32,000 nucleotides of DNA from an uncultured Fibrobacter sp. (GCA_934691725.1 CAKUTF010000002.1:34167-66166), one strand, 5' to 3'; positions 2,219-19,900 are shown, numbered from the stretch's first letter. A program made the numbers and translations. The notes: a model not told the origin generated them from the sequence alone.

Positions 2219-3496
2219 TCACTTTATGTTTTCAAATCCCTTGAAATCGGATTGCCCTGAGATTGCGGAATCCAGGTCGCTCAGGGGCATCTTGAACAGG
2301 CCTTCCCAGGCGGCTGCGTAGATGGTGTCGCCAACCACATCCAAGCCATATGTAGCATCGCAGCCTTTATCGTCACACCAGCCGAGCATCATGGCTCGCC
2401 AGCCCTTGGGAACATTTCCGTAGGGCTCTCCATAATCCCCCATATATACCTTGGGGCAATGATTCACGTTCGGAGCCTTTCCCGAAATAAAGAGGCGCTT
2501 CCCGTCGGTAACCACATTCATGATGCGAAACAAGGAGCTTCTGTATATGGTGTAGGCTGTATCCCCGTAAACCGTGACATAGGGCGGAGTAATCATGCTG
2601 TCGAGCGCGATCCAAGATTCCGAACCGTCCCATTGATAGACTCGGTCATTTGTACCGTCAACTGCAACCAGCGAACCCTTGTAGGTTACAAGATCCACGA
2701 CCTCATAGACGTCGTGATACATGGAATTCCACATCATCTTGGGGAATTTGGGAAGCTCGGTCCAGGAAAGGGATGTCCCGTCCAATTTCCAGACGCCGTC
2801 TCCGGTTCCCACATACAGGGAACCTCCCATTTCTGCTGAAGATGTAAATTGAAGCGGCACCGTATCGTCTTTATACATGTCATAGCGGATTGAAGGTGTT
2901 GGCAGGCTTCGCCAGCCGGTATCATTCTGCAAAAGGATGCTTGCTGTAACAATTTTTGTATTCAAGGTATCGGGATAGCTTCCGATACTAACAATCAGGT
3001 TTCCTTTAAATTTTTGTATTCCAATGACATAATGCCATGCCGAAGCATCCTTTTTTACAACATTCAGCTCTTTCCATTCTTTTTTTTCTGGATTATACAC
3101 CAGAACATTTCCCGTTTTATTTGTTCCGACATAAATCCCTGAGGAATCAGCGAAAAGAGAAGAATTTCTAACATAGGCCGACGTCGGCGGTACAAGGGTG
3201 TCCCAGATGCCTGAGCCGATTCTAGAAACAAATAGCCTCGGGGTATAAGTCAAAGTCGTCCACGTATCGGATTGGTTCTCTACGGGGCTTGTCCACGCGT
3301 CCATCAGGACCAGCCAGTTGCCGGAATGCGTCACTTTCTGGAGACCGCCACCCCGTTGGGTAGAAATCACGGGAGTAAAGCCCGCGCTTCGCCAGCCTAC
3401 CGTGATGGGTTCGCTTTCGTGTTTCGGGTTCACGCCAGAATCGTCTGTGCAGGCAAGGAGAGCAAAGACCGTAAAAAGCAGGTATCCCTTCTTCAT
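2219..3496 (-). CDS. lipoprotein of unknown function (repeat-rich, possibly beta-propeller-like)
   Basis: 425 aa. N-terminus MKKGYLLFTVFALLAC has a lipobox (LLAC). Its ATG overlaps the stop of the upstream gene as ATGA (3493-3496). Overlapping frames are short. Confidence 0.8.
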   Translation of the reverse strand: MKKGYLLFTVFALLACTDDSGVNPKHESEPITVGWRSAGFTPVISTQRGGGLQKVTHSGNWLVLMDAWTSPVENQSDTWTTLTYTPRLFVSRIGSGIWDTLVPPTSAYVRNSSLFADSSGIYVGTNKTGNVLVYNPEKKEWKELNVVKKDASAWHYVIGIQKFKGNLIVSIGSYPDTLNTKIVTASILLQNDTGWRSLPTPSIRYDMYKDDTVPLQFTSSAEMGGSLYVGTGDGVWKLDGTSLSWTELPKFPKMMWNSMYHDVYEVVDLVTYKGSLVAVDGTNDRVYQWDGSESWIALDSMITPPYVTVYGDTAYTIYRSSLFRIMNVVTDGKRLFISGKAPNVNHCPKVYMGDYGEPYGNVPKGWRAMMLGWCDDKGCDATYGLDVVGDTIYAAAWEGLFKMPLSDLDSAISGQSDFKGFENIK

Positions 3497-6400
3497 CTTA
3501 TGTCCCTCCGGGCATATTGTGGAACGAGTAAATCCGGACCGTCATACGCCTCGCAAGCTTCAACGGAAGGGATTTGTCCGTATATCGCGTTCCCGTCGGA
3601 ATCGACCAGGGCGATTCCGCAGACAAGCTTGTCGAACTCGCTCCAGTCGGTCAGGCGAAGACCGACATTCCCTTCCGTTACCGATTCTTTGGAATAGAGA
3701 ATATGCCTGTCGAAAAACATGTCGAGTTCCCAAACGTTCCCGCCGACATTGGTCAAGGAAGGCTTGGATTCCGGTGTGTACCAGTCTTCGGGTGGCGGCT
3801 GCAAAGTTTTCCCCACAGGGACTCTAAACCACATTTTAGCGTGGTAATTCCGAAGGTTTACACTACCCGTGTTGGAAACCGTCACCTGCGGCTTGAACAT
3901 GTTCTTTTCCCATGGGGCGGCGTCTTTCCAGGAAACCGTTCCCTTGGGCGAAGCGACAATGCCGTCATCTACGCTCTCGAACATTTTGGGTTCCGCTCCC
4001 CAGAGGATTTCGCCTCCCTTGCCATATACGACAATCTTTCGGTCTATTTTCGGCAATCCGACATTGTAATCCGCCGACCAGTCGTTTAAATGCCTGTAAT
4101 CGGACCAGTCGCCGTAATGGATTCGGATTTGCCAGCCGTCCATTCCCGGAAACACGGAACGGGCTTTCAAAACGGAATCCGAGGCGTCCAGGACGAAACG
4201 CCACTGGTCGCCACCCAGGTTTTCAAGCGTTACCGGAATCTTCGGGTAGTCGATTTCCACGACGGGTTTTCGCGACGGATCGGCTGTGAAGTAATACGCG
4301 ACCTTGAATCCTCCTATATCGTTATTCGATGAATTCGCCACAAGGATTCTCGGACGGGAAGTGTTGCTTTCTTGTTCGCCTCTCGCTTCTCGATGCATGG
4401 CGAATATCGAGGACTTGGCAAAGAACTTGTCCTTTGGCGTACTCGGAGGCGTTTGTGTCGATGGGTCTGTCGCGTTTGCTACGCCAGCGACCACTCGCGG
4501 CAGGATGTCATCATTTCCATTGCCGACTGAATAGGTGACGTTTTCCGCCAGCTTCGGCATCGGGTAGGTCTTCACATACATTTTTCCCGAATAGTTGTTG
4601 AACGAGACGGAGATGTTTTGCCCTTCGCGGGAAACCGAAGGCGTCGTCGAAATCGATGCGCCGATGACGGTGTCCAAGACGGCGTTGCCGTTTTCATCGG
4701 TATAGGTGACGAAGGAACCGGTTTTCGGCCTGTAAGTCGCCTTTAAGAAGTGAGTTCCGTCGGATACGGTCACTTCCTGCACTCCGCTTTCCGTGAATAT
4801 CGGGGCTATGTCGAAATCCCCGGCCAAGCCCACGCTTCCCTGCTCTAGGTAAACCAGTCCCGCTCCCTGTTTCTGTAAAGTCCGGTCGCAGTAGAAATCG
4901 AGTGCGCATGATATGTCCAGTCCCTGTTTTGTCGATCCGTCGTTCTTGCCTTTCACGGGCATGTGCAGGACATCTTCCCACGGGGCCAGCGCGTCGTGGA
5001 ACAAATATGGGCGAGGATCTTTAAATCCTTTTATACCGTTTGGTTCTGTTTCAGGAATAATGCCCGCATCTCGATTTATAAATTTTTGGCTGTATTCTGT
5101 TACAGCGATATCGGTTTGGGAAAACCAGTTGTCTTGAACATTAACCAGCGCGTTCCAGAGGGTATCGTTGAACTCCACGTCGCTTATTTCGGCAACGCCC
5201 TGTTTTTTCGCCATTTCCATCGCATACGTTTTAAAATAGTCCCCCGCGGCAAAACATTCCCGGCTCTCGTCGTTTTTCGCGCAGATTTCGTTTGCTTCCT
5301 CGCCCAGGGAATAAAGAAGATCGGCAAGGAACCTCTTCGTTGACGGGGAGTACAGGGGGCGCAGGGTCACGTTGGTTCCGTCCGGTCGCTTAGGGTAAGC
5401 GTTCCCTAGATTCCGTATGAATGTGCCGTTTGCGTCCAGGTGGGCTCCTGCCTTTCTGATTTTACGGGCTTCCCGCGAAACGGAAGCCATGGTTTTGATG
5501 GTGTCGAGCGTTTTTGTCACGTTGAACGGTCCCGCTCCAACGCCGTCGATATACACCTCGGGAACATATTTCCCTACATACGGTCCCTTTACTGTCAGAT
5601 ACACGTCCGTTGCCCAGTCCGTAGCCGCTCCGTATAGCCACCCCAATATGCTCGCTGCAGGAGTAAAGACCTGGAGGATTCCCAGTGGGTTGTCCAGGCC
5701 GATTTTTCCAATGCCATCGGTAAATGCGCCGGCCGCTTCGTAGGCGTAGTTGTACCAGTGCAGGTCCAGCTTGGCGGTAATCAAGTCGTGTATTTGGGGA
5801 TTTCCATTTTCCTGTGCGTCCAGGTCGTCGATAATCGGCTTTAATCCCGAAAACTTTTTCCCTATGTCTTCTGTATTTTTCACGGCAAGTTCCGAACCGA
5901 AATGGGGAGTGTCGACCGTGATGACCTTCCCGATATGGTTCGCCGCGTTTTGAGGTCCATTTAAATTATCCCCGTCAGTTTGCAAACCTCGCAGCATTTC
6001 CCTGACGACAAGCCCTCCCTGGCTATGGGCTACGATGTCCACGACCAGCTCAGGTCGATTTTTCCATCCGAGCGAGTCGTCCGAACCGTAAAAATCATCC
6101 AGGACATCAATTAGTTGTTGGTACAGCTTTCGTGATTGGGAATTCGATGCGTCATTCCCGTCCCACTCCAGTCCCGCTTCCCGCCATTTGTCTCCTTCCA
6201 TCTTGCCGGGAGCCTGGAAGAAATAGATCCCGTTACTGTTTATATGGGCTTCGGAATTGTCTAGATTCTGCATCCTGGCGATAATGTCCGGCGCAGAACC
6301 GTTTTCGTATCTTTTTACGAGTCCCTTTTGAAAGGATTCCTCCGCCTTCTTTTTGTCGCCCGAAACATCCGTTTTCGGGATGACGCCCCAGACATCGTAG

Positions 6401-7038
6401 CTGCTGTTCAGACCGTGGACAAAGATGACGGGGCGTGGCAATTTTTTACCTGGCTCGCCCTGGTAAGTCCATTCCGGGAAAGCGACCCTTTGCTTCTCCC
6501 ACGATTTAACCAAGGCTTCCCGGTCGAAAGCGCCGTCATACCCGCTGAATTCCGAACACGATTCGTCAAACCGGCCGTTATCTTTGATGCAACGAAGCGG
6601 CTTTTCCGTCCATGCGTGCGCATGTGACTTGAACTCTTCGATTTTCTCGTTGCTCGGGTTGTAGAATTCGTTTAACTTGTGCGGGTCGCTGAAAAAATAA
6701 GAATGACCGTCATACTGCAGCTTGTTCAGGCAGGTAACGCGGTACGTTATCCGGACAATGCTTACCAGACAGTAATAATGGTAAGGATCAAACAAATCGT
6801 CCTTTCCGTCCCAGTAATAGTCCGCCCTCTCGTCAACCCGGACGATTTCAAAATTCTGCACGTTTCTGCATCTGTTGTACGGTAGGTAGGTCTTGTCGTA
6901 AGGTTCCGCCCAGCGGGTATCCTCGTCTATGTCTGCCGGAAAGTCTTTGTATTTAGAAACCGCTTTGTCGTAATCCTCTTCGGCAAAAGAGGCTGAAAAC
7001 AACAATAATGTGCTAAAAATGAATGTTTTTATTCCCAT
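3493..7038 (-). CDS. secreted alpha/beta-hydrolase (lipase/esterase) with two C-terminal CBM3-like modules
   Basis: 1181 aa.
- Signal peptide: MGIKTFIFSTLLLFSASFA.
- Oxyanion-type motif VIFVHGLNSSYDVWG and nucleophile elbow VDIVAHSQGG (an AHSxG pentapeptide, as in Bacillus family I.4 lipases).
- Two C-terminal modules match my recollection of CBM3 signatures: FKVAYYFTAD ... IRIHYGDWSDYRHLNDWSADY ... IVVYGKGGEILWGAEP, and VTVSNTGSVNLRNY ... GLRLTDWSEFD ... DGNAIYGQIP. Confidence 0.85.
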   Translation of the reverse strand: MGIKTFIFSTLLLFSASFAEEDYDKAVSKYKDFPADIDEDTRWAEPYDKTYLPYNRCRNVQNFEIVRVDERADYYWDGKDDLFDPYHYYCLVSIVRITYRVTCLNKLQYDGHSYFFSDPHKLNEFYNPSNEKIEEFKSHAHAWTEKPLRCIKDNGRFDESCSEFSGYDGAFDREALVKSWEKQRVAFPEWTYQGEPGKKLPRPVIFVHGLNSSYDVWGVIPKTDVSGDKKKAEESFQKGLVKRYENGSAPDIIARMQNLDNSEAHINSNGIYFFQAPGKMEGDKWREAGLEWDGNDASNSQSRKLYQQLIDVLDDFYGSDDSLGWKNRPELVVDIVAHSQGGLVVREMLRGLQTDGDNLNGPQNAANHIGKVITVDTPHFGSELAVKNTEDIGKKFSGLKPIIDDLDAQENGNPQIHDLITAKLDLHWYNYAYEAAGAFTDGIGKIGLDNPLGILQVFTPAASILGWLYGAATDWATDVYLTVKGPYVGKYVPEVYIDGVGAGPFNVTKTLDTIKTMASVSREARKIRKAGAHLDANGTFIRNLGNAYPKRPDGTNVTLRPLYSPSTKRFLADLLYSLGEEANEICAKNDESRECFAAGDYFKTYAMEMAKKQGVAEISDVEFNDTLWNALVNVQDNWFSQTDIAVTEYSQKFINRDAGIIPETEPNGIKGFKDPRPYLFHDALAPWEDVLHMPVKGKNDGSTKQGLDISCALDFYCDRTLQKQGAGLVYLEQGSVGLAGDFDIAPIFTESGVQEVTVSDGTHFLKATYRPKTGSFVTYTDENGNAVLDTVIGASISTTPSVSREGQNISVSFNNYSGKMYVKTYPMPKLAENVTYSVGNGNDDILPRVVAGVANATDPSTQTPPSTPKDKFFAKSSIFAMHREARGEQESNTSRPRILVANSSNNDIGGFKVAYYFTADPSRKPVVEIDYPKIPVTLENLGGDQWRFVLDASDSVLKARSVFPGMDGWQIRIHYGDWSDYRHLNDWSADYNVGLPKIDRKIVVYGKGGEILWGAEPKMFESVDDGIVASPKGTVSWKDAAPWEKNMFKPQVTVSNTGSVNLRNYHAKMWFRVPVGKTLQPPPEDWYTPESKPSLTNVGGNVWELDMFFDRHILYSKESVTEGNVGLRLTDWSEFDKLVCGIALVDSDGNAIYGQIPSVEACEAYDGPDLLVPQYARRDIR

Positions 7039-8117: not shown

Positions 8118-9119
8118 ATGAAAAAAATTGTTTTCACGCTCATTCTCCTGGTTTTTCTCGCCCTAGGCCTTCTCTATTTCGCAAGGGAAAAGGTTTTCTC
8201 CCCCACAAGCAACGCCCCGACGACATTCCAGGTCGAAAACGGAGCCTCCGCCGCAAAAATCGGAAAAGCGCTCGAAGCCCGCGGACTCGTTTCCAGCGGA
8301 AAACTTTTTTCGTGGTGGTGCCGCTACAGGAAAGCCTCTCTCAAGGCAGGATGGTATGACATTCCGGAGAAGACCAGCATTGCCGGTATCGTCGAGATTC
8401 TCTCTGCGGGGAAGACCGCTGTCCGCAAGGTGACGATTCCCGAAGGACGCGCTTCCTGGGAAATGCCCGCCTATTTCCGCAAGGCGCTCCCCGACTTCGA
8501 TTCGACTAAATGGGAATCGATCGTCCACGACCCGGATTTTGCGCGGGAACTCGGCATCGAAGCGGAAAGCCTCGAAGGCTACTTGCTCCCGGACACCTAC
8601 CCGATTGAAATCGGAGCTACGGAAAAGGATATCGCAAGGCAAATGGTCCGCGCGAATAAAAAGCTCCGCGATGAAATGAAAACGAAAGGGAGCCCGCTCT
8701 GGAAAGAACTCGGAAACTGGCACAGGATTCTCACGCTCGCAAGCGTCGTCGAAGAAGAAACCGGCAAGACGGACGAACGCCCGCTCATCGCAGGAGTATT
8801 CATCAACCGTCTGCGGCAAGGGATTCCCCTCGGAGCGGACCCCACGGTCCGGTTCATTTTCCGGAACCTGACCGGTCCCATCTACAAAAGCCAGCTCCAG
8901 AGCGAAAGCCCTTACAATACGCGGCGTTTTCCGGGACTGATGCCCGGCCCGATTTCCAATCCGGGACGCAAGGCCGTCGAAGCGGTCCTCTATCCGCAAA
9001 AGACCGACGCGCTTTACTTTGTCGCAAAAGACGACGGTTCGGGAACGCATTTTTTCGCAAAGAGCCTTTCGGAACACAACCGCTACAAATCGCAAGCGGC
9101 CAAGAATCGCGGCGAATGA
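8118..9119 (+). CDS. mltG: endolytic murein transglycosylase MltG (YceG-like)
   Basis: 333 aa with an N-terminal TM anchor. YceG-family blocks are present: LTLASVVEEETGKTDERPLIAGVFINRLRQGIPLGADPTVRF, YNTRRFPGLMPGPISNPG, and YFVAKDDGSGTHFFAKSLSEHN. Confidence 0.92.
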   Translation: MKKIVFTLILLVFLALGLLYFAREKVFSPTSNAPTTFQVENGASAAKIGKALEARGLVSSGKLFSWWCRYRKASLKAGWYDIPEKTSIAGIVEILSAGKTAVRKVTIPEGRASWEMPAYFRKALPDFDSTKWESIVHDPDFARELGIEAESLEGYLLPDTYPIEIGATEKDIARQMVRANKKLRDEMKTKGSPLWKELGNWHRILTLASVVEEETGKTDERPLIAGVFINRLRQGIPLGADPTVRFIFRNLTGPIYKSQLQSESPYNTRRFPGLMPGPISNPGRKAVEAVLYPQKTDALYFVAKDDGSGTHFFAKSLSEHNRYKSQAAKNRGE

Positions 9120-11282
9120 TTACCAGTTCGCTCCGACCTGGAAAAAGAGGCTGAAATCGCTTATGTTTTTCAGCTTTGGAAAATCGCTCAGAGAAACGAT
9201 TCGGTGTAGCCCTAAACGAAGGTCAAGCGTCCGGTAGGCAAAGCGTACCATCGGTTCGAAAAGCAAGCGGTTCGCCTCCAAATCGACAAACGGGTTTTCC
9301 TCGAAATCGCGCATGTAGGACGCAAAGACCCACGCCCCGAAAAAGCGTCCGTGCACGCCAAGACTCGCCCGGGCCGCCGCATAGTGGTGGGTCGCCGTTT
9401 CCAAAAAATTAAAGGAAGCGCTCCAAGGGGAAAGCTCCGGATGCATCCGAAACCAAAGATCCACCGCCCGAATCGTTCCGTCGCTCCAAGTGGCAAGCGG
9501 ATCGGGATAGACGTAGCCCTCGCCCGATTCCCGGCGAATGTGGACTCCCGCCAAGGCTCCAACCCCCAGAGCGAAAAAGCGGGTCGGAGAGAAGAATTTC
9601 TGGACGTCCAAGTTGGATGCGAGGTAAAGCGGGGCGTCGCCCGTACCGTCCGTCAGGTTCACCGAACGAAATCCCAGACTGCCCGAAATCCGGTAGCCTC
9701 GGTCCCCGAACCATTCTTCAAACCCGCAGCGACTACGTACAAACGAAACTTTAGGATACAGGGTGTTTACAAAAAAAGTTTCTTCTTCGTGAAAAGTTCG
9801 GAGTTCAGATTTTCCGAGGAGAACGTCCAGCGAAAAATCCGCCAGGGAATCTTTCCAGGCAAAGCGCAACTCCGCATCGTTTTCCCGAACTTCCCGAATG
9901 CGCAAACCTTTCGAAGCTTCCGAAAAATACCCGAGAAGCGGACGACGCCTAGAGATGTTTCCCCAGGCAGAAAACTCTCCGCGATAACCGAAAAAACCGC
10001 GCATCAAAAATCCGGGACGGACAGCATACGAATATTCCCCGACATAGCCGTCAACGGAAAGTGCGTATTCAAACTGGTTTACAAAACGAAAATCCAGTCC
10101 CGCATACGCCAAGGGTCCCGTCAAATTGGAGCCAAAACCTCCGACGCGAACTTCGAGAATCGATGTCGCCGAGGCGGAAATTTTCGCAATCCCTGCGGAA
10201 TCCATCTGGACTTGCACGGAATCATAGAACGGCGAATAGGCGATGCGTTTCAAGAAATTGCCCGGAGCGTCGATTCCCGTATCGGAAGGATTCCAGCGAG
10301 ACGAAATGTCGGAATAATAGAGCGAAGAAACCTGTTCAAAGGACGGCTCGATTTTAAACCGCGGAAGGATAGAATCCGACGGTTCGGGAGGCCGGTAAGT
10401 TCGCAAAGCGAGCGGGGAAAGTTCACCCAACTTTCTTTCCATGTCCGAATATCCCGCCTGCATCCATCCAAGCGGGGACTCTTCGGCAAACGAATGGGGA
10501 CGGACAACGGCCAGATGCCCCCCCGAATCTTTTCGGGCGCGAAAGAACTTCAAGGCGTTTTGAAATCCGGCAACGGCAAGCGGATCTTCCCGAAAGCCGT
10601 CATCCCGAACCGGGTAGGCCATGACATAAATCGAAAACGCAGACGAATCGTCCGGAAAAAAGAAAGGGCACTTCTCGCCCGAAGCGAACGAAAACGGGAG
10701 CGCCTCCACAACCTTCGAAGGCTTGAATTCGCCCGCTTTACACGAAAGTGCGGAAAAAGGAATCGCCGAAGAGTCCGCCCGGGTCAAAGCCTCTTGCAGC
10801 CGAAGCAGAAAGAGCGACTTTTCCAGAAAGGATTCATCGATTTCCAGGGATTTGGGACATAGCATCGCCCGTCCAGACGAATCTCCGAAAAAGGCAAAGC
10901 GAAACGCAAGCGCTGGCGCCCCCGAAAAAGCAACCGGCAAGTCAAACCATCGCCGTTCTGGCGTGTGCGGCAAAACCTGCGAAACAAAAAGCGTGTCGGT
11001 CAAGATCCGCTGGATTTCATCGAGTTCAAAACCCGAGGCCCAGAGCGACCCGACAAAAGCCCCCCACGAAGTCCCTACTACGGAATCCACCGGGACGCGG
11101 TAATCCCGCACGGCATACAGAACGCCTAACGAATACCACGGCGAACGACTCCCCCCTCCCAGATAAAGAACCGTTCTCGAAAACGGAACCGTTTTCTTTT
11201 GGAAATGCAGGGAATCGCCTTCGGCAAAGGAAAGCGTCAGAAACGCGAAAAGAGGAATCCAGAGCTTCCTGAGAAGGCACAT
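9120..11282 (-). CDS. patatin-like phospholipase with C-terminal beta-barrel (PlpD/FplA-like, type Vd autotransporter architecture)
   Basis: 720 aa. Signal peptide, patatin glycine-rich motif LGGGSRSPWYSLGVL and nucleophile GTSWG. The C-terminal half is long, rich in alternating aromatic/Gly residues, and ends ...FFQVGANW (terminal aromatic, typical of OM barrels). Length is close to P. aeruginosa PlpD. I could not confirm a POTRA region by eye. Confidence 0.8.
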   Translation of the reverse strand: MCLLRKLWIPLFAFLTLSFAEGDSLHFQKKTVPFSRTVLYLGGGSRSPWYSLGVLYAVRDYRVPVDSVVGTSWGAFVGSLWASGFELDEIQRILTDTLFVSQVLPHTPERRWFDLPVAFSGAPALAFRFAFFGDSSGRAMLCPKSLEIDESFLEKSLFLLRLQEALTRADSSAIPFSALSCKAGEFKPSKVVEALPFSFASGEKCPFFFPDDSSAFSIYVMAYPVRDDGFREDPLAVAGFQNALKFFRARKDSGGHLAVVRPHSFAEESPLGWMQAGYSDMERKLGELSPLALRTYRPPEPSDSILPRFKIEPSFEQVSSLYYSDISSRWNPSDTGIDAPGNFLKRIAYSPFYDSVQVQMDSAGIAKISASATSILEVRVGGFGSNLTGPLAYAGLDFRFVNQFEYALSVDGYVGEYSYAVRPGFLMRGFFGYRGEFSAWGNISRRRPLLGYFSEASKGLRIREVRENDAELRFAWKDSLADFSLDVLLGKSELRTFHEEETFFVNTLYPKVSFVRSRCGFEEWFGDRGYRISGSLGFRSVNLTDGTGDAPLYLASNLDVQKFFSPTRFFALGVGALAGVHIRRESGEGYVYPDPLATWSDGTIRAVDLWFRMHPELSPWSASFNFLETATHHYAAARASLGVHGRFFGAWVFASYMRDFEENPFVDLEANRLLFEPMVRFAYRTLDLRLGLHRIVSLSDFPKLKNISDFSLFFQVGANW

Positions 11283-11294
11283 CGCTACCCCGGA

Positions 11295-12188
11295 CTAGGC
11301 TTTCGGTGATTCAAAGATTTTTTCAAATTCGCCCGAAACGATTAGCGGAGCGACGCAAGAATCGACGTTAAAGACTTCCCACGACGGAACAAAGGACTTT
11401 CTGTCATCGGCAAGTACAAGCCTTTGGGTAACGACACCCCGGAGATTAGCCGCGAGAGAGGCTCGGAGGAGCTTCCTGTTTTCACAAGAAGTCGAAGAAG
11501 AAAGATAAGCCATGACGTCCCGCGCAGAACCTGCCGTATATGTGGCGACGACCAACGCTCCCGAAGCTGCGGCATCGAGAGCCGGAAGCAAGGCGTTTTC
11601 GTCTAGGTCTCCGAGCCAGAACAGGTCCGTCCCCGATAGGATTCCCTGCCGAATTTCCTCTTCCGCGGAAACCTTGGGACGTTTCCGCACGACAAGACTT
11701 TCTCCCGTCCGAATCCGGTATTCGGGAAGCGCGTCCAAGAAGCTCGCCCGGAGCGTCCGCCTTGAACACAGTTCCGAAACGAAAGCGGATGCGGTCGTCG
11801 TCTTTCCCGAAAGCTTTGGACCCGCGAACAGGACAAGCCCGGAATCCACACCAAGCAGGTTCATCGCCGCTTCGGGGAAAGCCAAGGTCGAAAGTTCCGG
11901 AGCGTCCATTCCGACAGGTCGCAAAACGACCGTCTTGCCAAAAGCCTCGCGAGAATAACGCACACGCCATTCCGTTTTCGCCCAAGGACCGCCACAAAAG
12001 GCGCCACTTTCCCCGACCAGGGGACCGAAAAAACTTTCCAGTTCGCCAAAAGAAAGCTTTTCCGCATTCGGAATGTTCCTCACGCGTCCTGCGATGCGAA
12101 GCGACGGGACAAAGCCCTCGGCTAAAATCAGATCCACCGCTCCGACCTGCAAAGCGTATTCCAGAACGCCATCCAAAGAATTTTCCAT
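11295..12188 (-). CDS. PilT-like secretion-ATPase family protein, degenerate catalytic motifs
   Basis: 297 aa. The N-terminus GAVDLILAEGFVPSLRIAGRV resembles PilT. Walker A GPKLSGKTTT is intact. The Walker B / catalytic Glu region reads LFWLGDLDE (canonical ILVGEMRD), and the His box reads SGALVVATYTAG (canonical TGHLV.sTLHT). Confidence 0.8.
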   Translation of the reverse strand: MENSLDGVLEYALQVGAVDLILAEGFVPSLRIAGRVRNIPNAEKLSFGELESFFGPLVGESGAFCGGPWAKTEWRVRYSREAFGKTVVLRPVGMDAPELSTLAFPEAAMNLLGVDSGLVLFAGPKLSGKTTTASAFVSELCSRRTLRASFLDALPEYRIRTGESLVVRKRPKVSAEEEIRQGILSGTDLFWLGDLDENALLPALDAAASGALVVATYTAGSARDVMAYLSSSTSCENRKLLRASLAANLRGVVTQRLVLADDRKSFVPSWEVFNVDSCVAPLIVSGEFEKIFESPKA

Positions 12189-12198
12189 ACACTATATC

Positions 12199-13785
12199 CT
12201 ATTTGCCCGGGCGATAGACGGCAAAACGGCGACGGTTCAAGGAATGCCGCCAAGCGTCCTCTCCGCGGATAAATCCCGAATCCACCAGATTTTGGAGGGA
12301 ATCGTCGAGCGAAATCCCTTGGTCTTTAGACATTATCGCTTGAGGCAACCGGGCGAGCTCCTTCCGGCGAATAATATCCGAAACCGAAGCGGTAACCTTC
12401 AGGGCTTCCGCGGCAAGGACCCAACCTTGGCCATCGATTACGGGGAGCAGATGCTGCACGATGATCCCCTTCAGTTCGTTCGATAACGCGTTCGCCAGTT
12501 CCTCTTCACTTTCACCTGCTTCGGAAAGCAAGCGGGAAAGCAGACCATAGATATCGTTACCCGTCGTTACGGCAAAGACCAGGACTCCCGAAGAAGCTGC
12601 CCGCAACAGCGACCAAAGCTCGTCGAGAGATTCCAGATGATCGAACAGGATGACATCCGCACCGGCGCGGGTTGCTTCCCGGACAGCCTCGCTTCCGGAT
12701 AGGACATGCAATCCGATCTCCTTTTGAAGGACCATCCCGCGGTCGCTTCGAAGCACGCGTTCAATCGGCTTCTCGACCGTTTCCAGAAGGACATCCCTGC
12801 CGTTCAATATCGCTTCGCCAAAAGCCCCGAGCGTCGTCGAGCGTCCGCTTTCCGAATTTCCGGCGATTAACACAAGCCCGCTTGAAAGCTTTAGGAAATC
12901 CTCACAGAACGCAGGCAGATACAATTTATCGAAAGAAATCGCCGTCGAAGAAATCAGGCGAATAGCAAGCGATGGAACAGTTTCGTTCCACGTAACCGCC
13001 AAGCGGTTCCGGCCAACCCCCGAAAGGGCGAAGGACTTGCAAAAATCCACTCCGACAACGGGTTCGTATCCGTCCGCAAAACCGTTTTTCGCTTCGGAGA
13101 GAAAAGCGGAAAGCCTAGACGCATCACAAATGGCGTCGCTCGCATAGACAAGCTTTCCAAACACGCGAAACGCAATCCGGGATTTTTCGGAAAGATAGAC
13201 ATCCGTCGCGTTGAGCTTCCGGGCAAAGGCAAGAATCTGCGAAAGGGAATTTTCCATCGAAAAACGCTCCGGGACTTCGACCGTTCCTTCCCCGCATTCG
13301 ATTTCAAAGCGGTCCGGCAAATCTTCTCCCGATTCGGAAAGTCCGCTATTCCCTGCCTGGAAAACGGCAACCGGCGCAATGCTCGTCTGTTCAAGCCCCG
13401 AAACCTTTTCGATCTGGACACTCGTCACGTTTGCTTGCCCGTAGGGATTGTTCCCTTCCAAGGCTATTGAAGGTTCGGGCTGCGACTTTGTTTCGGCAAT
13501 CGGTTCTGTTTTTGAGGCAGGCGTCGGAGCTTTCGCCGTCGGGCGTTCAAAAGGCGAATCGGTCGAAGCCTTGGGCTTTTCCGCCGCATTCAGCTTGACC
13601 TCCAAATCCCGAACATAGGAATCCACCGCATCATAAGTCGTTTGGTCGAGAATGCCGTTTTCGAGCAAGAGCCTTCCCAAATCGTGGGATTCGTCAATTT
13701 TATCCCAAAACTCCTGGATTTGCGCCTTTGTGACCAGGTTGTTCGAAAACAGGACCTTTGCCATTATCTGGTTTCTTGTCATCAT
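12199..13785 (-). CDS. GspE/PilB-PilT-like protein with T2SSE_N-like N-domain, degenerate catalytic motifs
   Basis: 528 aa. The N-terminal ~60 aa resemble a GspE/MshE N-domain (LVTKAQIQEFWDKIDESHDLGRLLLENGILD), followed by a Pro/Ala/Glu-rich linker and a PilT-like core. Walker A reads GNSESGRSTT (Lys to Arg). The Walker B region reads DVILFDHLES (no Glu). The His box reads SGVLVFAVTTG. Confidence 0.8.
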   Translation of the reverse strand: MMTRNQIMAKVLFSNNLVTKAQIQEFWDKIDESHDLGRLLLENGILDQTTYDAVDSYVRDLEVKLNAAEKPKASTDSPFERPTAKAPTPASKTEPIAETKSQPEPSIALEGNNPYGQANVTSVQIEKVSGLEQTSIAPVAVFQAGNSGLSESGEDLPDRFEIECGEGTVEVPERFSMENSLSQILAFARKLNATDVYLSEKSRIAFRVFGKLVYASDAICDASRLSAFLSEAKNGFADGYEPVVGVDFCKSFALSGVGRNRLAVTWNETVPSLAIRLISSTAISFDKLYLPAFCEDFLKLSSGLVLIAGNSESGRSTTLGAFGEAILNGRDVLLETVEKPIERVLRSDRGMVLQKEIGLHVLSGSEAVREATRAGADVILFDHLESLDELWSLLRAASSGVLVFAVTTGNDIYGLLSRLLSEAGESEEELANALSNELKGIIVQHLLPVIDGQGWVLAAEALKVTASVSDIIRRKELARLPQAIMSKDQGISLDDSLQNLVDSGFIRGEDAWRHSLNRRRFAVYRPGK

Positions 13786-14591
13786 ACAAAATCCCTGCGG
13801 CTAAACCACCAGCTAGAGATGGCAAGGAATATTCCGATGTAGCCGATTGCGTACAAACTATTCCACAAGATATAGTGCGAAGGAAGGGCGATACCGTGCA
13901 CGACATAAGACGCAATGTCAAAGCGGTACAGGCCGGGGAAAACGGCATGGACGATTTCTGCAGCCTTTTCCATCACGACGCTTTCCGTTCCCTCGACTTC
14001 CCCCATCCGACGGACAAAGCGCACCTGTTCCATCAGTTCATTCGAGAGCCGTCCGGCGATATAGACGCCTATCGTAAACAGTGCAGATAGAACCGGTGTC
14101 GAAAAAGTCGAAAAAAGAAGGGCGACCGCGACGACAATTGCCATTTCCCAAAAAATCAAAAGAACCGCCCAGAGAAGCGAAAGCGTCGGATTTGACCCCG
14201 TCCATACGAGAATCGCGTAATAGACCGACGTGAGCAAAACGAGGTGAACCGCGACAACGGCGAGCAGCCCTAGATATTTCCCGATGATGAAAACCGCGCG
14301 GCTGATGGGCTTCGAAAGAAGCGTAAGGACGGTTCTCCCCTGGATTTCCTTCTGGACAAGTCCGATTCCGACAAAAACCGAAATCAGAAGTCCCGAAAGC
14401 GACATGATGCTGAGGGTTGTCGATTTTATCACGTAAGAACGGTCGAAAACTGACCATTCCCCGAGCAAGATGCTGAAAAAAGCAAGCGCAATCGCAAGGA
14501 AAACGATATTGTAGAGAATCTTGTTTCGCACCGACTCGCGAAAAGTGTTCAGTGCGATGATCCCGATATTCTTAATGTTCTGCACGGGCAA
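13782..14591 (-). CDS. ABC-2 type transporter permease
   Basis: 269 aa with about 6 predicted hydrophobic helices. The N-terminus IALNTFRESVRNKILYN is typical of ABC-2 permeases. It overlaps the upstream ATPase gene by 20 nt, and shares an ATGA overlap with the downstream gene. Confidence 0.85.
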   Translation of the reverse strand: MPVQNIKNIGIIALNTFRESVRNKILYNIVFLAIALAFFSILLGEWSVFDRSYVIKSTTLSIMSLSGLLISVFVGIGLVQKEIQGRTVLTLLSKPISRAVFIIGKYLGLLAVVAVHLVLLTSVYYAILVWTGSNPTLSLLWAVLLIFWEMAIVVAVALLFSTFSTPVLSALFTIGVYIAGRLSNELMEQVRFVRRMGEVEGTESVVMEKAAEIVHAVFPGLYRFDIASYVVHGIALPSHYILWNSLYAIGYIGIFLAISSWWFSRRDFV

Positions 14592-15486
14592 TTTCCTCCG
14601 TCAAGACATCTTCGAGACTAGGACGTTTATGTTCGACGCATTCCACGGGAAGTCCCGAGCGAAGGCAAAAATTCAAAAAGCGGTCACGCGCAAGAGAATC
14701 CCGGCAGACCCATTCCCGCGGAGTTGTCCCCTGCGGCTTGACGCCTTCGGGAAGATCCGACAAGGGAATATCCGCTGCGACATGGACATGGTATTCCGCA
14801 GAAGCGTTCGACGTAAAGTCGTCAACCGTTCCCTCGCGGACGATTTTTCCGCCGACAATCATCGCGACGCGGTGGCTGATCGTTTCGACGTCCGACAGCA
14901 AGTGGCTCGAATAGAAGACCGTGACGCCTTCCCGGTTGAGCGAAAGAATCGCTTCGCGGACATCTTTTCTGCCTACTGGATCGAGCCCGCTCATCGGTTC
15001 ATCCAAAATCAAAAGGTCCGGCTTCGAAAGAATCGCCTGGGCGATGCCGACCCGCTGCATCATTCCCTTCGAATAGGTACGCAGCCGCCTGTTAATCCAG
15101 TCCTTGTCCGCATTCAAAAGGGACAGCGCCCAGTCAACCCGCTTTTCCAGGAAACATCCGGAAAGTCCGCAAAGCCTGCCGTAAAAACGCATCAGTTCGC
15201 GCCCCGTCAAATAGTCGTAAAAGTAAGGCTGTTCCGGCGAATATCCTAGATGACGACGGCATTCCACATCCGAAGGATCCCGCCCGCCGACCAGGACCTT
15301 TCCCGAATCCTTGCGGAGAAGCCCCGTTAAAAGCTTAATCGTCGTCGATTTTCCCGCACCGTTCGGGCCGATAAAGCCATAGATAACGCCTTTCGGAACA
15401 TGAAACGACACGCCGGAAAGCGCCTTTTTCGGTCGCAGAAGAAAACCCGAGCGATATGTCTTCTGGAGATTTTCGACCTGGATCAT
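14572..15486 (-). CDS. ABC transporter ATP-binding protein
   Basis: 304 aa. Walker A GPNGAGKSTT, signature-like YSKGMMQRVGIAQA, Walker B LLILDEP, H-loop SSHLL. Confidence 0.93.
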   Translation of the reverse strand: MIQVENLQKTYRSGFLLRPKKALSGVSFHVPKGVIYGFIGPNGAGKSTTIKLLTGLLRKDSGKVLVGGRDPSDVECRRHLGYSPEQPYFYDYLTGRELMRFYGRLCGLSGCFLEKRVDWALSLLNADKDWINRRLRTYSKGMMQRVGIAQAILSKPDLLILDEPMSGLDPVGRKDVREAILSLNREGVTVFYSSHLLSDVETISHRVAMIVGGKIVREGTVDDFTSNASAEYHVHVAADIPLSDLPEGVKPQGTTPREWVCRDSLARDRFLNFCLRSGLPVECVEHKRPSLEDVLTEEIARAEH

Positions 15487-15719
15487 TTTTCGTCCTCTTC
15501 ACCCTTCGCAATTTTCTTCAGCGTCTTGCGGTTGAAGACATAATAGAGTACGGCCCCGATCAAATAGACGAGCAGCCCCGCATAGAAGAAATAGTTGAGA
15601 GAGGATACGGGAAATCCCGGAAAAATCCGGTTGAGCAGCGGATGCCCAAAAAAGTACATCAAAACGAGAACGACGCCTAAGATTCGAAGCGCATACGTCA
15701 TTCCAACTTTCTTGTCCAT
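15483..15719 (-). CDS. small membrane protein (two TM helices), first gene of the operon
   Basis: 78 aa with two clear hydrophobic helices and a charged tail KKIAKGEEDEK. Its stop overlaps the ABC ATPase start as ATGA. It has no similarity I can recognise. Confidence 0.6.
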   Translation of the reverse strand: MDKKVGMTYALRILGVVLVLMYFFGHPLLNRIFPGFPVSSLNYFFYAGLLVYLIGAVLYYVFNRKTLKKIAKGEEDEK

Positions 15720-15813
15720 AAAAATTCTCCAAGAAGAAACCTTTCGGAGAAAAAATACACATAAAAAAAGAAAAGCGTTAGGCTACCTGGAAAATTCGCC
15801 CGATATTTGTTAT

Positions 15814-16080
15814 TAGTTGAGAGGATGGAATCAGTGGTCAATTAGCAATGAGTAATTAGGAGTGAGGAATTGGCTGTTTAGCGAGCCGGTGTCAGAGGTC
15901 AGCGACTAGCGAACAGTTAGGGAACAGGGAGTGGGAATTAGATTGCTGAGCGAACTGTTGCTAGAGCTTAGAGCTGAGATTTTAGAGCTTAGCAAATAGT
16001 TGATAGTGGACAGGAATCAGGACTCAGTGGTCAGAGCCTAGTTGATAGTGGATAGTTGAAAGAAAATAGGACTCAAAAAA
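15814..16080 (+). repeat. heptanucleotide NAG-N4 periodic array, sense on plus strand
   Basis: There are 19 in-phase 7-mers from 15948 to 16080, and 17 of them begin NAG (for example tagagct tagagct gagattt tagagct tagcaaa tagttga tagtgga caggaat caggact cagtggt cagagcc tagttga tagtgga tagttga). Earlier blocks use the same unit with 1-4 nt phase slips. By hand count there are 17 TAG triplets. The plus strand is strongly C-poor. No ORF is present. Confidence 0.9.
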
Positions 16081-16201
16081 GGCTCGCTCCGCGACCAATT
16101 CCTCATTCCTCATTTTCTTACCCGTCCGCGAAATATTCCCTCATCCCTAGTCCCCAAGAGCTTAAACGTCCACGGTTCTAAGCTCTCAGTTCTATCGACT
16201 A
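16081..16201 (-). repeat. heptanucleotide NAG-N4 array plus conserved core, sense on minus strand
   Basis: The minus strand, read from the TAG stop of the GGGPS-like gene, gives: tagtcga tagaact gagagct tagaacc gtggacg tttaagc tcttggg ... tagggat gagggaa ... gaggaat gaggaat tggtcgc g gagcgag cc. The plus strand here is G-poor, so composition flips at 16080/16081. Confidence 0.8.
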
Positions 16202-16957
16202 AGCTCTGACATGGATGGCATTCGCAAATTCGCGGAGAAGCCCCGGATCCTTCACTTTTTCCCAAAGCGTTCCTGTCACAATAATCTGCGCACCGGCGGA
16301 AACACGCACGGAAGCCGCTTCGGGTTCCCGGATTCCTCCCCCGGTGATAATCGTCATCTGTGTTGCCTTTCGCGTATAGGCGATATGCTCTACCGGAACC
16401 GGCGTCTCGGCACCGGAGCCTGCTTCAAGATAGACGTAACGCATTCCCATCAACTCCGCGGCGACAGAATGCACCATCGAGAGCTTCGGCTTGTTCGACG
16501 GAACGGGCATCGTGTTGCTGATATATTCCACGGCTGTGCGTTTTCCGCTGCTGATAAGCTCGTATGCCGTCGGAATCGCTTCGATGCCTAGAGACCTCAC
16601 CAGAACGCCTCCGCGGACCTGTTCGTCAATCAGATAGTTCGGGTTGCGGCCCGTCACAAGCGTCGTAAAAAGAATCGCGTCAAAGCCGGGAACCACCTGG
16701 GACGCTCCGCCCGGAAAGAGGATAACCGGAAGCGGGACCTCCTTTTTCAGTGCCAAAACCTGGGACGGAAGCTTGAAATTTCCCATGAACGATCCACCGA
16801 CGAGAAGCACATCCGCTCCGTTTTCGGCAGCAAGCGTTCCCGCTTTGAGGAGGGACGTGTCGTCCGATGTGTCGGGGTCGAGCAGCACGGCGAACAACGC
16901 GCCGCGCCTTTCGATAGCCTCGTTCAAGGCGGTTTCGGTCTTACCTATTTTAAGCAT
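16199..16957 (-). CDS. geranylgeranylglyceryl phosphate synthase family protein (GGGPS/PcrB family prenyltransferase)
   Basis: 252 aa, counting from the internal ATG at 16957 (MLKIGKTE...). Family blocks present: LLDPD, GADVLLVGGS, PVILFPGG, DAILFTTLVTGRNPNYLI, YVYLEAGSGAETPVP, IITGGGIR, IIVTGT. The 73-codon upstream extension in the ORF track is Arg/Ser/Cys-rich and overlaps the preceding gene, so I reject it. Confidence 0.87.
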   Translation of the reverse strand: MLKIGKTETALNEAIERRGALFAVLLDPDTSDDTSLLKAGTLAAENGADVLLVGGSFMGNFKLPSQVLALKKEVPLPVILFPGGASQVVPGFDAILFTTLVTGRNPNYLIDEQVRGGVLVRSLGIEAIPTAYELISSGKRTAVEYISNTMPVPSNKPKLSMVHSVAAELMGMRYVYLEAGSGAETPVPVEHIAYTRKATQMTIITGGGIREPEAASVRVSAGAQIIVTGTLWEKVKDPGLLREFANAIHVRA

Positions 16958-16985: not shown

Positions 16986-19900
16986 TTACTTGCTCTTTTT
17001 ACGGCGAACGCCCCATTTGTCGCGCATCTCTTCCTGCACTTTCTTCTGCTTGTAGCGCACGACCAGTTTGAACTCGACGATATACACGCCGGAACCGACC
17101 AGGCGCCCCGAATGGTCCTTGTAGTTCCAGTTGACGAAGACTTTCTTATCCGTCGTGAGGCAGTTTCTTCCCGCACCGAATGCCGGGCTGTTGCACGGAA
17201 TGTTGAATGTCGTATCCGTCACGTATTGTCCTAGGTTGTCAAAGTAGCTCACGCTGAAATTCACGAAGACGTCACCCGGGTCGATGCTATCGAGGACAGC
17301 CGCATCGTAATTTCCGTCCGCATCGAGTTTCGCACCGTCAATGAGCTGGGGAACAAAGCGTTCGCCGAGAGAAATCAGATGCCCGAGCGTTCCTTCGTCG
17401 CGAAGGTCCGAAGTCCGCGTCTGGTTCGGCACGTAGGAAATGGAAACCGAGTTCAGCGTACTGGTGATGTATTTTTCCGGATCATAGGATCCCATCTTGA
17501 CGGATTCCACCAGCTTTCCGAGAAGCCCGCCGATAACCACGGGAGATGCGTTTTCAACCGTCTTGTTGCCGTAGATATCCGCAATGGAAGATTTTTCTCC
17601 GCGAACGACCAGGAGAGAATCCCCGGGCACGATGCCGTCCGTCGATTCGCGCAGCACAAGGCGCACCGACTTGCCGTCTGCCGCCCAGAGCATCCGGGAA
17701 GGCCGAATATCAATCGTATCGTTTCCATGGATGTAGGCGAAGAAGTCGTTTCCGACAAGCGAAGAATAATCGACCGGTTCAGAGAACGAAACCGTGAGCG
17801 TATCGCGGGAATCGCCGTAGCGGAGCGAAGCCGCCGTGACAACCGGAGCCATCTTGTCCGCAATTGCGATTGTCTGCTGCGCAACAAAGGTGTTCCCGAA
17901 AATATCGTAGTAGGTGTAGAGCGTTGCCGCAGGAACATTCGAACCGATGCTAGTCAAGCCCGGAGCGACATTGACATTGCTTCGGACCACCCATCCGACG
18001 CTCTTCCCGTCCGCGCCCAGAATCAGGTCGCGCGGCTGCGCCTGGAGTTCGATCAAAAGCCCACGGGAACTATACCACGGGAACGAGAAGTAGAAGTTTT
18101 CAACGTCTTCCGCCGTCACCTTCGAAGAGAACCTAACCGCAACGGAATCGAGCTTGCCGTCACCGTCCGTATCGTAATACTCGACCATTTCCGCTGCCGG
18201 ATAGCGATCCGTCACTTTTACAGGGACCTGGCGTTCGTATTCCGAAGTCGCGATGTAGGAAAGATTGTGGAACGAAGCTCCCGGAGCGAGCGTCACAAAG
18301 TCCGTCCGTCCGTTGAGACCTAGCGAATCGCCAACCAGAATGATAAGATTTTTCGTCGGCAGGTAAATCTTGACCGCATCCAGGTCAAAGCCCATCGCAT
18401 TCAGCCACACGACCATCTCGGGACTGTTCAGGTCCGCAGGGATGACATCGATATTAAACTCGACGAAAAGCGAATCCCTGCCCGTCTTGTTACGAATCGC
18501 ATAGGCCTGCTTGATGACATGTGAGCCGAGGAGGAGGAGGTTCGTGCTGCGGTTATAGTTCGCACCGGTCTCTTCGCTCGTATAGGTCACGATAACCCGA
18601 GCGTTGTCCGGGAAGCGGTCCCCGGAAAGCCCGAGTTCCGCGGCGCTCGCATAGATTCTCGACCCGGATACGGTCAGCGCACCGGAAAGCGGAAGCGTGT
18701 CACCGTTTACGACCAGGGCAAGTCCCGTCGCCGAAAGCCCCGCGGGAACCGTATCGGAGAGAATCACTTCCAGGGAATCCAAAAGACCGTCATCGTCCGC
18801 ATCCTGGATGTAAGCGACTTCCGCCTTGGGAATCGGGTCGTAGAAATTGATGCCGTCAAAGATGATCAGATGACCGTCCTTGTCGGTAATGTAGATGCTT
18901 CCCACGAGAACTGTCGTGTCTGCGGAAACCCAGAACGACTGGTCCTTCCCGGTAACGCCGATGGAAATGTTCGACGCCGGCGCATCCGTATTGGAAGGAT
19001 CCTTGAAAATCAGCCCCGCGGAACCGGAGATGTAGAGCGAATCCGCATCGCCGAAGTAATCGCGAATCTTATCCGCATCGAGCTTGATTTCGATAACATC
19101 GCCGACACTGACCGATTCGCGTCCGCTAGCAGGAATCGAATCGGAGCCGTAGCTAGGCAGATCCGTCGATTGGGAATTGCCTCCAGTCACATAGGTGTTC
19201 CCGTTGATGATAACCGTTCCCGGAACAGAGGAATCCGCAGGAATCGGGATAAGCTTGGAACCGCCGATGATAAGGGTATCTCCCTTGTCGCGCTTGTCGT
19301 TTGTCGGGTAGAGGTCCGAACCGTCCTGGTTTTCCGAACCTTCTTCGCCAAATCCTTCATAGACCGTGGTGTCCGTAACCCAAGGCGGAATCCATTCGTC
19401 TCCGCCACCCTTTACCGAGCTGGAGGAATTGTTACCTGTGCCGCTCGAAGAGCCCGGATTTTCCCCGCCAGCGGAACTCGAAGAATTGCCGCTACCACCG
19501 CCATTCGAAGAACTCGAACCGGCGTCTCCCGAACCGGAAGAGTTGCCCGCACCGCTCGAAGAGCCCGGATTTTCCCCGCCAGCGGAACTCGAAGAATTGC
19601 CGCTACCGCCGCCATTCGAAGAACTCGAATTCTTGCCGTCATTGCTGGAGGAGCTTAGGTCGGAATTCCCCGAACTTGAAGATTTAGACCCCGAGCCGCC
19701 GATTGAACTGGAAGATTTACCCGAACTCGAAGATTCATGGAAAACGTTTGCGCTGGACGAGCTTCTGGAACTCGAAGAAACCAGCGTCCCCGGATTCGTC
19801 GTCGCCGAGTGGCGGTTGGAACCCGCCCCGGCAATCGGAGCGAGGTCATCCAGATAGTTATCAATCCACTGAACATGCAGGAGGATGTTGTTATCGATCA

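Follow-up and report, generated by a model that had tools for sequence, protein, structure and literature searches.

What do two relatives of the pilus retraction ATPase PilT do in a block of genes without any pilus component, and what ties them to a transporter of the inner membrane and a patatin-bearing barrel of the outer membrane? This question is raised by positions 9120-15719 of a stretch of 32,000 nucleotides (nt) of DNA from an uncultured Fibrobacter sp. (GCA_934691725.1 CAKUTF010000002.1:34167-66166), the whole of which is called the window here. Six genes on its minus strand encode, in the order of transcription, a small membrane protein, the ATPase and the permease of an ATP-binding cassette (ABC) transporter of the ABC-2 type, two proteins of the PilT fold designated PilT1 and PilT2, and a protein that combines a patatin domain with a POTRA unit and an Omp85-type barrel. 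Comparative analysis indicates that these genes form a single envelope module, strongly conserved in the Fibrobacter family and in related uncultured lineages, and this conservation suggests a cell-envelope machine that has not been described before. The best matches of the window proteins are 98% and 86-87% identical, and those that bear a name derive from Fibrobacter, Hallerella and Fibrobacteres; the organism belongs to the Fibrobacteraceae and is closest to Hallerella-like genomes. The block is composed as follows:

15483-15719, minus strand: small membrane protein of 78 amino acids (aa), first gene of the block (open reading frame (ORF) call; no Pfam or NCBIfam family)
14572-15486, minus strand: ABC ATPase of 304 aa (PF00005, ABC_tran, E = 4e-28)
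13782-14591, minus strand: ABC-2 permease of 269 aa with a TTG start (PF12679, ABC2_membrane_2, 33.4 bits against a cut-off of 27.2)
12199-13785, minus strand: PilT1, 528 aa (PF00437, T2SSE; TIGR01420 at E = 1.7e-47, below cut-off)
11295-12188, minus strand: PilT2, a PilT-fold paralogue of 297 aa (PF00437, T2SSE; TIGR01420 at E = 5e-23, below cut-off)
9120-11282, minus strand: patatin-POTRA-Omp85 protein of 720 aa (PF01734, 32.1 bits against a cut-off of 27.7)

The first-pass annotation of this DNA had described the six genes as one tightly coupled unit, and all junctions it gave could be read back from the window sequence. The genes of the small protein and the ATPase share an ATGA overlap of 4 nt (15483-15486), those of the ATPase and the permease overlap by 20 nt if the TTG start is used and by 14 nt if translation begins at the GTG at 14585, and a second 4-nt ATGA overlap joins the permease gene to PilT1 (13782-13785). 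Gaps of 10 nt and 12 nt follow between PilT1 and PilT2 and between PilT2 and the patatin-barrel gene, respectively. That these genes belong together is borne out by relatives and distant contigs, where both the order and the tight junctions recur. A scan for sigma-70 promoters and terminators is silent on a single transcript either way, because the counts were no higher than in shuffled controls and the clade uses a different promoter type. Rfam models recovered only two tRNAs, with no match within the block or upstream of it.

A PilT1 alignment, run against a single genome for each GTDB species, yielded 70 loci with a PilT1 orthologue, besides three ordinary PilT genes of other phyla. When all window proteins were compared with these loci (L007-L076) by tblastn, the same six genes were found in the same order and on the same strand wherever the contig was long enough, and gaps in the gene set were confined to contig ends. 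The first-pass annotation had named a gene order peculiar to this strain as a ground for refuting its reading; the order is kept in about 70 species-level genomes and on distant contigs. The junctions are retained to a similar degree: the ATGA overlap (-4 nt) between permease and PilT1 occurs in 69 of 75 loci, the overlap between ATPase and permease amounts to -20 or -14 nt in 69 of 72, and the spacing between PilT1 and PilT2 is 14 nt or less in all 75, most commonly 2-14 nt. This arrangement spans a wide divergence inside the family, with identities of 43-48% for PilT1, approximately 44% for PilT2 and approximately 31% for the patatin protein. Both ABC subunits hold 70-75% identity where the other block proteins diverge, and of all block proteins the permease varies least (70-99% identity across the family). 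Six of the GTDB records (L007, L008, L010, L012, L019 and L027), all from one "cleanbin" series, are titled Oscillospiraceae, Alistipes onderdonkii, Senegalimassilia, Sodaliphilus, Methanomethylophilaceae archaeon and Eggerthellaceae. Their PilT1 proteins are 67-87% identical to that of the window and their flanking genes up to 96%, and these records look mislabelled or mis-binned.

Beyond the family, an exhaustive profile search recovered more distant proteins that share the PilT1 N-terminal motif NQLLAKVLFTNKLATKEQI..W, and their gene context was then looked up on metagenomic contigs. The loci L080, L081, L162 and L163 contain the same six genes amid unrelated flanks, with PilT1 27-37% identical to the window protein; L080 and L081 (PilT1 ~36-38% identical) have entirely different flanks and lack PcrB, a near-constant neighbour within the family. 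Orthologues of the small two-helix protein hold the first position in these four loci as they do in all Fibrobacteraceae loci. On a further contig, which carries P0195, a six-gene arrangement adjoins a protein of a Fibrobacter-type paralogous family. The sixth protein of L163 (835 aa) is homologous to that of the window over its full length (hhalign E = 8e-45), and Walker A is missing from both of its PilT-like proteins. L162, by contrast, has canonical motifs in both: GPVGCGKTT, DILVVSEL and GHLVFGTMNT in PilT1, and GPTGSGKST, IEEPVEF, VGEMRD and GTLHTNSA in PilT2. Its sixth protein is likewise homologous over the full length (hhalign E = 1e-8), with GSGWG in place of GxSxG and the Gly-rich loop gone. 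Both PilT-like proteins of L165 are canonical as well.

Reduced versions of the block consist of PilT1, PilT2 and the patatin-barrel gene (L166), of PilT1 and the patatin-barrel gene (L164), or of PilT1 and PilT2 (L165). The PilT-like genes and the patatin-barrel gene form the most persistent link, and the ABC-2 unit is usually present and not always adjacent. Because the linkage of the PilT-like genes to the patatin-barrel gene outlasts the adjacency of the ABC genes, the transporter is not the obligatory hub that it had been taken for at first. Genes of type IV pili (pilin, prepilin peptidase, platform, secretin) were found neither in the window nor in any related locus examined. For the window itself this agrees with the earlier reading, Pfam scans of the larger ORFs having revealed no pilin, secretin or PilC/GspF platform gene in the 32 kilobases (kb). 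Nor did any of the loci examined place the PilT-like orthologues in a standard type IV pilus locus, the setting that had been envisaged as a sign of chance juxtaposition. A metagenome scan with an active-type PilT1 alignment was discarded; its 80 loci are ordinary PilT genes without patatin or ABC-2 neighbours, and the scan is uninformative on the module because the underlying patterns (SAAETGHLV, ALRQDPD) are generic to PilT. A protein search seeded with the degenerate distant group returned relatives of P0194 only and none for the other six query lineages.

The two PilT-like proteins differ from retraction motors in the residues that matter most. An AlphaFold2 (AF2) model of PilT1 with a predicted local distance difference test (pLDDT) score of 80.5 comprises a confident four-helix N-domain (residues 1-69), a disordered linker of roughly 85 residues (70-153) and a complete PilT protomer (residues ~160-528). 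Foldseek aligned the latter to PilT4 (6ojx) and PaPilT (3jvv) with target template modelling (TM) scores of 0.86-0.90 (0.89 for 6ojx) and a root mean square deviation of ~2.5, and the profile of the PilT1 alignment matches PilT 2ewv at E = 2.7e-46. Short motifs in the linker region are invariant, namely E110, N112 and G116 (EGNNPYG), L156-P157 (LPDRF) and G165 (GEG). In Walker A of PilT1 (GNSESGRST) the lysine is replaced by arginine (R315, invariant; Arg in 74 of 75 orthologues), Walker B (ILFDH, with F381-D382 invariant) is devoid of the glutamate, and both histidines of the His box are absent. PilT2 retains Walker A (GPKLSGKTT), with lysine in 75 of 75 orthologues, and has in its Walker B (WLGD) aspartate instead of glutamate, replaced by Asn or Gly elsewhere (D 46, N 13, G 1); compared with canonical PilT its Asp box is degenerate and a His box is lacking. 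Against the TIGR01420 cut-off of 319, PilT1 scores 162 and PilT2 scores 82. Both proteins thus possess the two-domain PilT fold, neither carries the complete motif set of a retraction ATPase (GxxxxGK[ST], Walker B Glu, Asp box and His box), and neither is associated with pilus genes. Lacking the residues for ATP hydrolysis, PilT1 and PilT2 of the Fibrobacteraceae are unlikely to be retraction motors. Their initial designation as two pseudo-ATPases therefore holds as far as the catalytic residues are concerned, which are gone in both; it goes too far for PilT2, whose Walker A is intact and which is thus not fully degenerate. From these residues, PilT2 is probably nucleotide-binding but non-catalytic.

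Another claim, that the N-domain of PilT1 is of the GspE/MshE type, could not be sustained. Residues 1-70 of the window protein and of three orthologues gave no match at E <= 10 to PF05157 (T2SSE_N) or to MshEN of the PDB, and the full-length Pfam scan of PilT1 was equally devoid of an MshEN/T2SSE_N match. By sequence, the N-domain has a hydrophobic spacing similar to that of the MshEN motif, which we take to be RLGxx(L/V/I)(L/V/I)xxG(L/V/I)(L/V/I)xxxxLxxxLxxQ with an Arg that binds cyclic diguanylate (c-di-GMP); the Arg positions are occupied by Ile/Met in repeat 1 and by the invariant Asp35 in repeat 2. In four Fibrobacter metagenome-assembled genomes (L062, L064, L070 and L075; PilT1 region 10001 to ~12300) the match to PilT1 begins only at query residue ~104-107 and ~350-390 nt past the end of the permease gene, and the called junction between permease and PilT1 is +11 to +89 nt rather than the common -4. 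In these genomes PilT1 seems to have a greatly enlarged or rearranged N-terminal region or linker. PilT2 of the window lineage is shorter at its C-terminus by about 38 residues (294-297 aa in the window, L007-L012 and L019 versus 332-337 aa in all other family members, such as L001, L005 and L013). As the closest relatives share the short form, it represents a lineage-specific truncation and not an assembly error. Among the nearest non-orthologous relatives are fusion proteins (P0201, P0209, P0215, P0216, P0222, P0241, P0266 and P0267) that join a PilT core to a second one (PilT-PilT tandems) or combine it with HEAT repeats, WD40 propellers or DUF4388; PilT-fold proteins outside pilus systems are a large and little-described diversity.

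The first three genes encode an inner-membrane ABC-2 transporter that consists of a small two-helix subunit, the permease and an ABCA-like ATPase and is co-inherited with PilT1, PilT2 and the patatin barrel. Hydropathy profiles indicate two hydrophobic helices in the 78-aa protein (~8-28 and 41-62), in which an FPG(F/L)(P/E) loop is conserved, and about six membrane helices in the permease. The profile matches of the ATPase assign it to the DrrA/ABCA-like (DrrA/GldA-like) subfamily, with TIGR01188 drrA at 190.7 bits and GldA at 172 bits, both under cut-off. All 75 orthologues, distant ones included, carry Walker A, the signature YSKGMMQR, Walker B (DEP) and the H-loop; with its intact Q-loop and a separate six-helix permease of the PF12679 type, the unit has all features of an ABC-2 exporter. 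Judged by such motifs, the ABC ATPase is the only unambiguously catalytically competent protein of the Fibrobacteraceae block. Its best sequence matches in the PDB are the nucleotide-binding domains of ABCA3/7/4/1 (E ~1e-60), followed by NosF (1e-41). This likeness to ABCA proteins is a trait of the subfamily and only a weak hint on the substrate.

For the 720-aa protein the first-pass annotation had proposed a PlpD-like architecture of type Vd, and this assignment is supported. The AF2 model (pLDDT 86.1) shows an N-terminal signal-like helix, a patatin alpha/beta domain at ~37-290, a POTRA-like beta-alpha-alpha-beta-beta unit at ~312-372 (pLDDT ~88-91) and 16 long strands over 374-716 that form the barrel. 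POTRA unit and barrel have no Pfam match; Foldseek matches of the barrel include TamA 4c00 (E = 3e-11), BamA, CdiB and Sam50, and the best PDB sequence match of the N-terminal part is PlpD 5fqu (E = 1.1e-6). By sequence and model, the protein accordingly combines a patatin domain bearing a Gly-rich loop and GxSxG with a single POTRA and a 16-strand Omp85 barrel. The GGG loop (42-44) and GTSWG are conserved, Ser72 is invariant in 45 of 45 sequences, and an invariant pair of cysteines (Cys181/Cys205) fits a non-cytoplasmic location. No DG[GA] motif aligns in the family of this protein. Across the lineages, the architecture is kept, whereas the PilT-like pair and the patatin domain differ in predicted catalytic competence.

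What such a module might do can be sketched as follows. PilT1 and PilT2 would assemble into a mixed cytoplasmic ring that was ancestrally a motor, for which the tandem PilT-PilT fusions among relatives provide a weak precedent. In the Fibrobacteraceae this ring would have ceased to be catalytic and would now sit on the inner-membrane complex as a scaffold or regulator; its PilT2 may still bind nucleotide, and the ABC ATPase would be left as the sole energy source. The patatin domain would act on phospholipid at the outer membrane, by binding or deacylating it, and transport of lipid or its breakdown products across the inner membrane would fall to the ABC-2 pump. Taken together, these steps amount to a module that handles envelope glycerolipids, analogous to but not homologous with the Mla pathway and PldA. 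Consistent with a lipid substrate, the closest solved relatives of the ATPase are ABCA phospholipid transporters, and Ser72 and the GGG loop of the patatin domain are conserved.

Several observations weigh against this interpretation and somewhat weaken the lipid role on which the first-pass annotation had speculated as well. ABCA-like nucleotide-binding domains are common among ABC-2 exporters of non-lipid substrates, and the ABC genes are non-adjacent in L164, L165 and L166. The position of the canonical patatin Asp, judged from the sequence alignment as the residue following strand 216-222, is occupied by Tyr223 in the window protein (AYPVR) and by Asp (ADPxR) in 18 of 45 aligned sequences (~40%). 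Lipase activity of the window protein is uncertain because of this tyrosine. Since L162 lacks the patatin serine and the Gly-rich loop and still keeps the module, catalysis cannot be the universally conserved role of the patatin domain. Gene linkage is moreover all that couples the proteins to each other, and no periplasm-spanning component is evident in the block. Because at least one lineage dispenses with lipase catalysis, which is also doubtful for the window protein, we favour the glycerolipid function tentatively and with somewhat less than even confidence. More doubtful, and wider in reach, is the notion of a hitherto unrecognised class of trans-envelope machines, in which a hetero-oligomeric PilT-type ring is combined with an ABC-2 unit in the inner membrane and a patatin-Omp85 protein in the outer membrane, for example to move or remodel lipid between the membranes or in vesicle shedding. 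The ring would be active in some lineages and a fossil scaffold in the Fibrobacteraceae, a type IV filament ATPase having been recruited to a filament-free job.

The persistence of the link between PilT-like and Omp85-barrel genes, which is the tightest of the block and endures even without adjacent ABC genes, could also point to protein export. A secretion or surface-assembly machine derived from type IV filament ATPases would use a PilT-type ring, with the ABC-2 unit replacing the PilC/GspF platform, to drive cargo through or alongside the Omp85 barrel, and the patatin domain would be passenger or plug and not an enzyme of lipid homeostasis. The barrel resembles the translocases TamA, BamA and CdiB, the catalytic residues of patatin are dispensable in some lineages, and distant members have the fully canonical PilT motifs expected of a working motor. 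We nevertheless regard such a machine as unlikely: neither the window nor the related loci contain a pilin, prepilin peptidase, platform or secretin, the hydrolysis residues are gone from both PilT-like proteins of the Fibrobacteraceae, and the block includes no conserved candidate cargo gene. Type Vd proteins, in addition, require no dedicated ATPase, as is established for type V secretion.

Alternatively, the catalytically dead ring could be a signalling device, which senses a nucleotide or second messenger via Walker A of PilT2 and the N-domain of PilT1 and switches the ABC exporter, whose substrate would then be unrelated to the patatin protein. This would explain why PilT2 has kept the Walker A lysine in 75 of 75 orthologues despite its lost catalytic residues. 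It also accords with the conserved helical N-domain of PilT1 and the short motifs in its disordered linker, which are typical of regulatory docking, and with the near-invariant ATGA overlap between permease and PilT1. The N-domain, however, has neither a profile match nor the signature residues of MshEN, L163 keeps the module without Walker A in either protein, and the linkage of the patatin-barrel gene to the PilT-like genes without adjacent ABC genes is left unexplained. A sensor of this kind therefore seems improbable, slightly more so than the secretion machine.

Inherited synteny of two or three independent units is very unlikely; these would be an ABC-2 exporter, the retraction ATPases of type IV pili and a stand-alone lipase of type Vd. 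Each of these units works alone elsewhere in biology, and synteny by descent is to be expected where most examined loci belong to one bacterial family. A phylum-wide survey, furthermore, assigns two to three "PilT" genes in each Fibrobacteres genome to type IV pili (PMC4704652), a count that probably includes the PilT1/PilT2 pair. The block, however, persists while both flanks change, recurs in entirely different neighbourhoods at PilT1 identities of 27-37%, and conserves its overlapping start and stop codons. Its PilT-like proteins, which appear unable to hydrolyse ATP, would not be retraction motors, and pilus genes never adjoin it in the loci examined. An anti-phage or toxin system with a patatin phospholipase as effector and ATPases as sensors was rejected as highly improbable: weak PADLOC matches (the ABC ATPase to mad3, mad8 and AriA, the patatin domain to a phospholipase effector model at E = 2e-4) and a weak NCBIfam match to an anti-phage phospholipase (E = 0.006) stem from the general likeness among ABC or patatin proteins, whereas the module is universal rather than patchy in the family members examined, occupies a fixed chromosomal position among housekeeping genes, and includes a patatin protein with a signal peptide and an outer-membrane barrel.

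The surroundings of the block in the window comprise the following genes:

16199-16957, minus strand: PcrB/GGGPS-family prenyl-glycerol-phosphate synthase (PF01884, E = 1e-36)
16986-20984, minus strand: large protein of 1332 aa without a Pfam match
21003-23681, minus strand: large protein of 892 aa without a Pfam match
8118-9119, convergent to the patatin-barrel gene: MltG/YceG gene (PF02618, E = 3e-78)
3493-7038, minus strand: secreted protein of 1181 aa with the serine-esterase/lipase motif AHSQGG

PcrB lies upstream of the block in the Fibrobacteraceae at a distance of 47 nt to 7.5 kb. It was considered as a seventh member and rejected on account of this variable distance and of its absence from all distant loci; the proximity of an ether-lipid enzyme to a putative lipid module may be significant or incidental. 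Between PcrB and the first gene of the block extends a non-coding stretch of 479 nt (15720-16198) without an Rfam match, ~300 nt of which are strikingly G-poor on the transcribed strand and contain recurring CACTATCAACTA-like words. In the 1332-aa protein, a signal peptide is accompanied by ~130 residues of Ser/Gly-rich low-complexity sequence. The downstream flank varies within the family and features MltG, TsaD or DUF5683. In the window, the stop codons of the patatin-barrel gene and of the convergent MltG/YceG gene abut with zero intergenic bases (9117-9122), and there is no space for separate terminators. The 1181-aa protein, with weak matches to DUF7379, DUF676, PGAP1 and Lipase_2, would be a second putative lipolytic envelope or secreted protein less than 2 kb from the block. 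Lipid or envelope genes also recur near the module elsewhere: der, plsY and gpsA, which belong to phospholipid synthesis, directly follow the block in L163 (9858-12779), a PAP2 phosphatase gene is found near it in L165 and bacA in L080. Their recurrence could be due to chance.

If the block functions as a unit, its significance lies foremost in the use of the PilT fold. To our knowledge, the ATPases of the PilT family have been described solely as motors, in type IV filaments and in secretion machines of types II and IV. The pair considered here is linked to an ABC-2 transporter and a patatin-bearing Omp85 protein, filament parts are missing, and an entire bacterial family strictly retains the pair although catalysis appears to have been lost throughout. 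This pattern points to a new use of the fold and, in Fibrobacter, to a core function of the envelope. The genus is a major degrader of fibre in the rumen and hindgut and is known for its outer-membrane vesicles. The series of lineages, which leads from an active PilT with a dead patatin to a dead PilT with a conserved patatin serine, would constitute a natural experiment on the mechanism, and the culturability of Fibrobacter succinogenes S85 makes the hypothesis directly testable. The results also correct surveys in which these genes were counted as type IV pilus retraction ATPases (PMC4704652).

The literature searched contained no description of an ABC-2 transporter combined with a PilT-like pair and a patatin-Omp85 protein, in line with the first-pass annotation, which had not recognised the combination among described systems. 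As far as gene linkage makes the block a unit, it fits no known kind of system; its parts, nevertheless, invite comparison. The 720-aa protein shares with the type Vd proteins PlpD and FplA a signal peptide, the patatin domain, one POTRA-like unit and a 16-strand Omp85 barrel. The described members are stand-alone, however, whereas the window protein is encoded in an operon with an ABC-2 transporter and two PilT-like genes; the Asp motif DG[GA] is unrecognisable in it, and its identity to PlpD is confined to ~70 residues. PilT and PilU have the same two-domain fold as PilT1 and PilT2, and the distant orthologues of the latter possess canonical Walker A, Asp box, Walker B and His box. The Fibrobacteraceae pair, in contrast, is devoid of the catalytic residues, and PilT1 adds the N-domain and the ~85-residue linker. 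Furthermore, the genes of the block never adjoin those for pilin, PilB, PilC or PilMNOPQ and come as a PilT1-PilT2 pair, reduced to PilT1 and patatin in L164.

GldA, GldF and GldG, which function in gliding in the related phylum Bacteroidota, represent the same ABC-2 subfamily as the transporter of the block. GldA is the second-best NCBIfam match of the ATPase and GldF the best of the permease, yet with 172 bits against a cut-off of 402.6 and 18 against 288.5, respectively, neither is an equivalog. The block also lacks GldG or a third Gld-type gene, and the gld operon in turn contains no PilT-like or patatin genes. Similar in logic is the Mla system (MlaFEDB-MlaC-MlaA) with PldA, which maintains the lipid asymmetry of the outer membrane; there, an inner-membrane ABC transporter with MlaB as a non-catalytic accessory protein of the cytoplasm is functionally linked to an outer-membrane phospholipase. 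No MCE (MlaD), MlaE, MlaC, MlaA or STAS-type domain was found in the six proteins by Pfam and NCBIfam scans; in their stead, the block has an ABC-2 permease, accessory proteins of the PilT fold, and a patatin-Omp85 protein in place of the PldA barrel. NosDFY, finally, is related through the transporter, NosY belonging to the permease family PF12679 and NosF being, among bacterial proteins of solved structure, the nearest to the nucleotide-binding domain (E = 1e-41). Homologues of NosD and NosL and any link to copper or N2O reductase are absent from the block. The NosDFY complex still provides a precedent for an ABC-2 complex that mechanically drives a partner protein rather than transporting a solute, and in the block such partners would be the cytoplasmic PilT-like proteins and the outer-membrane barrel.

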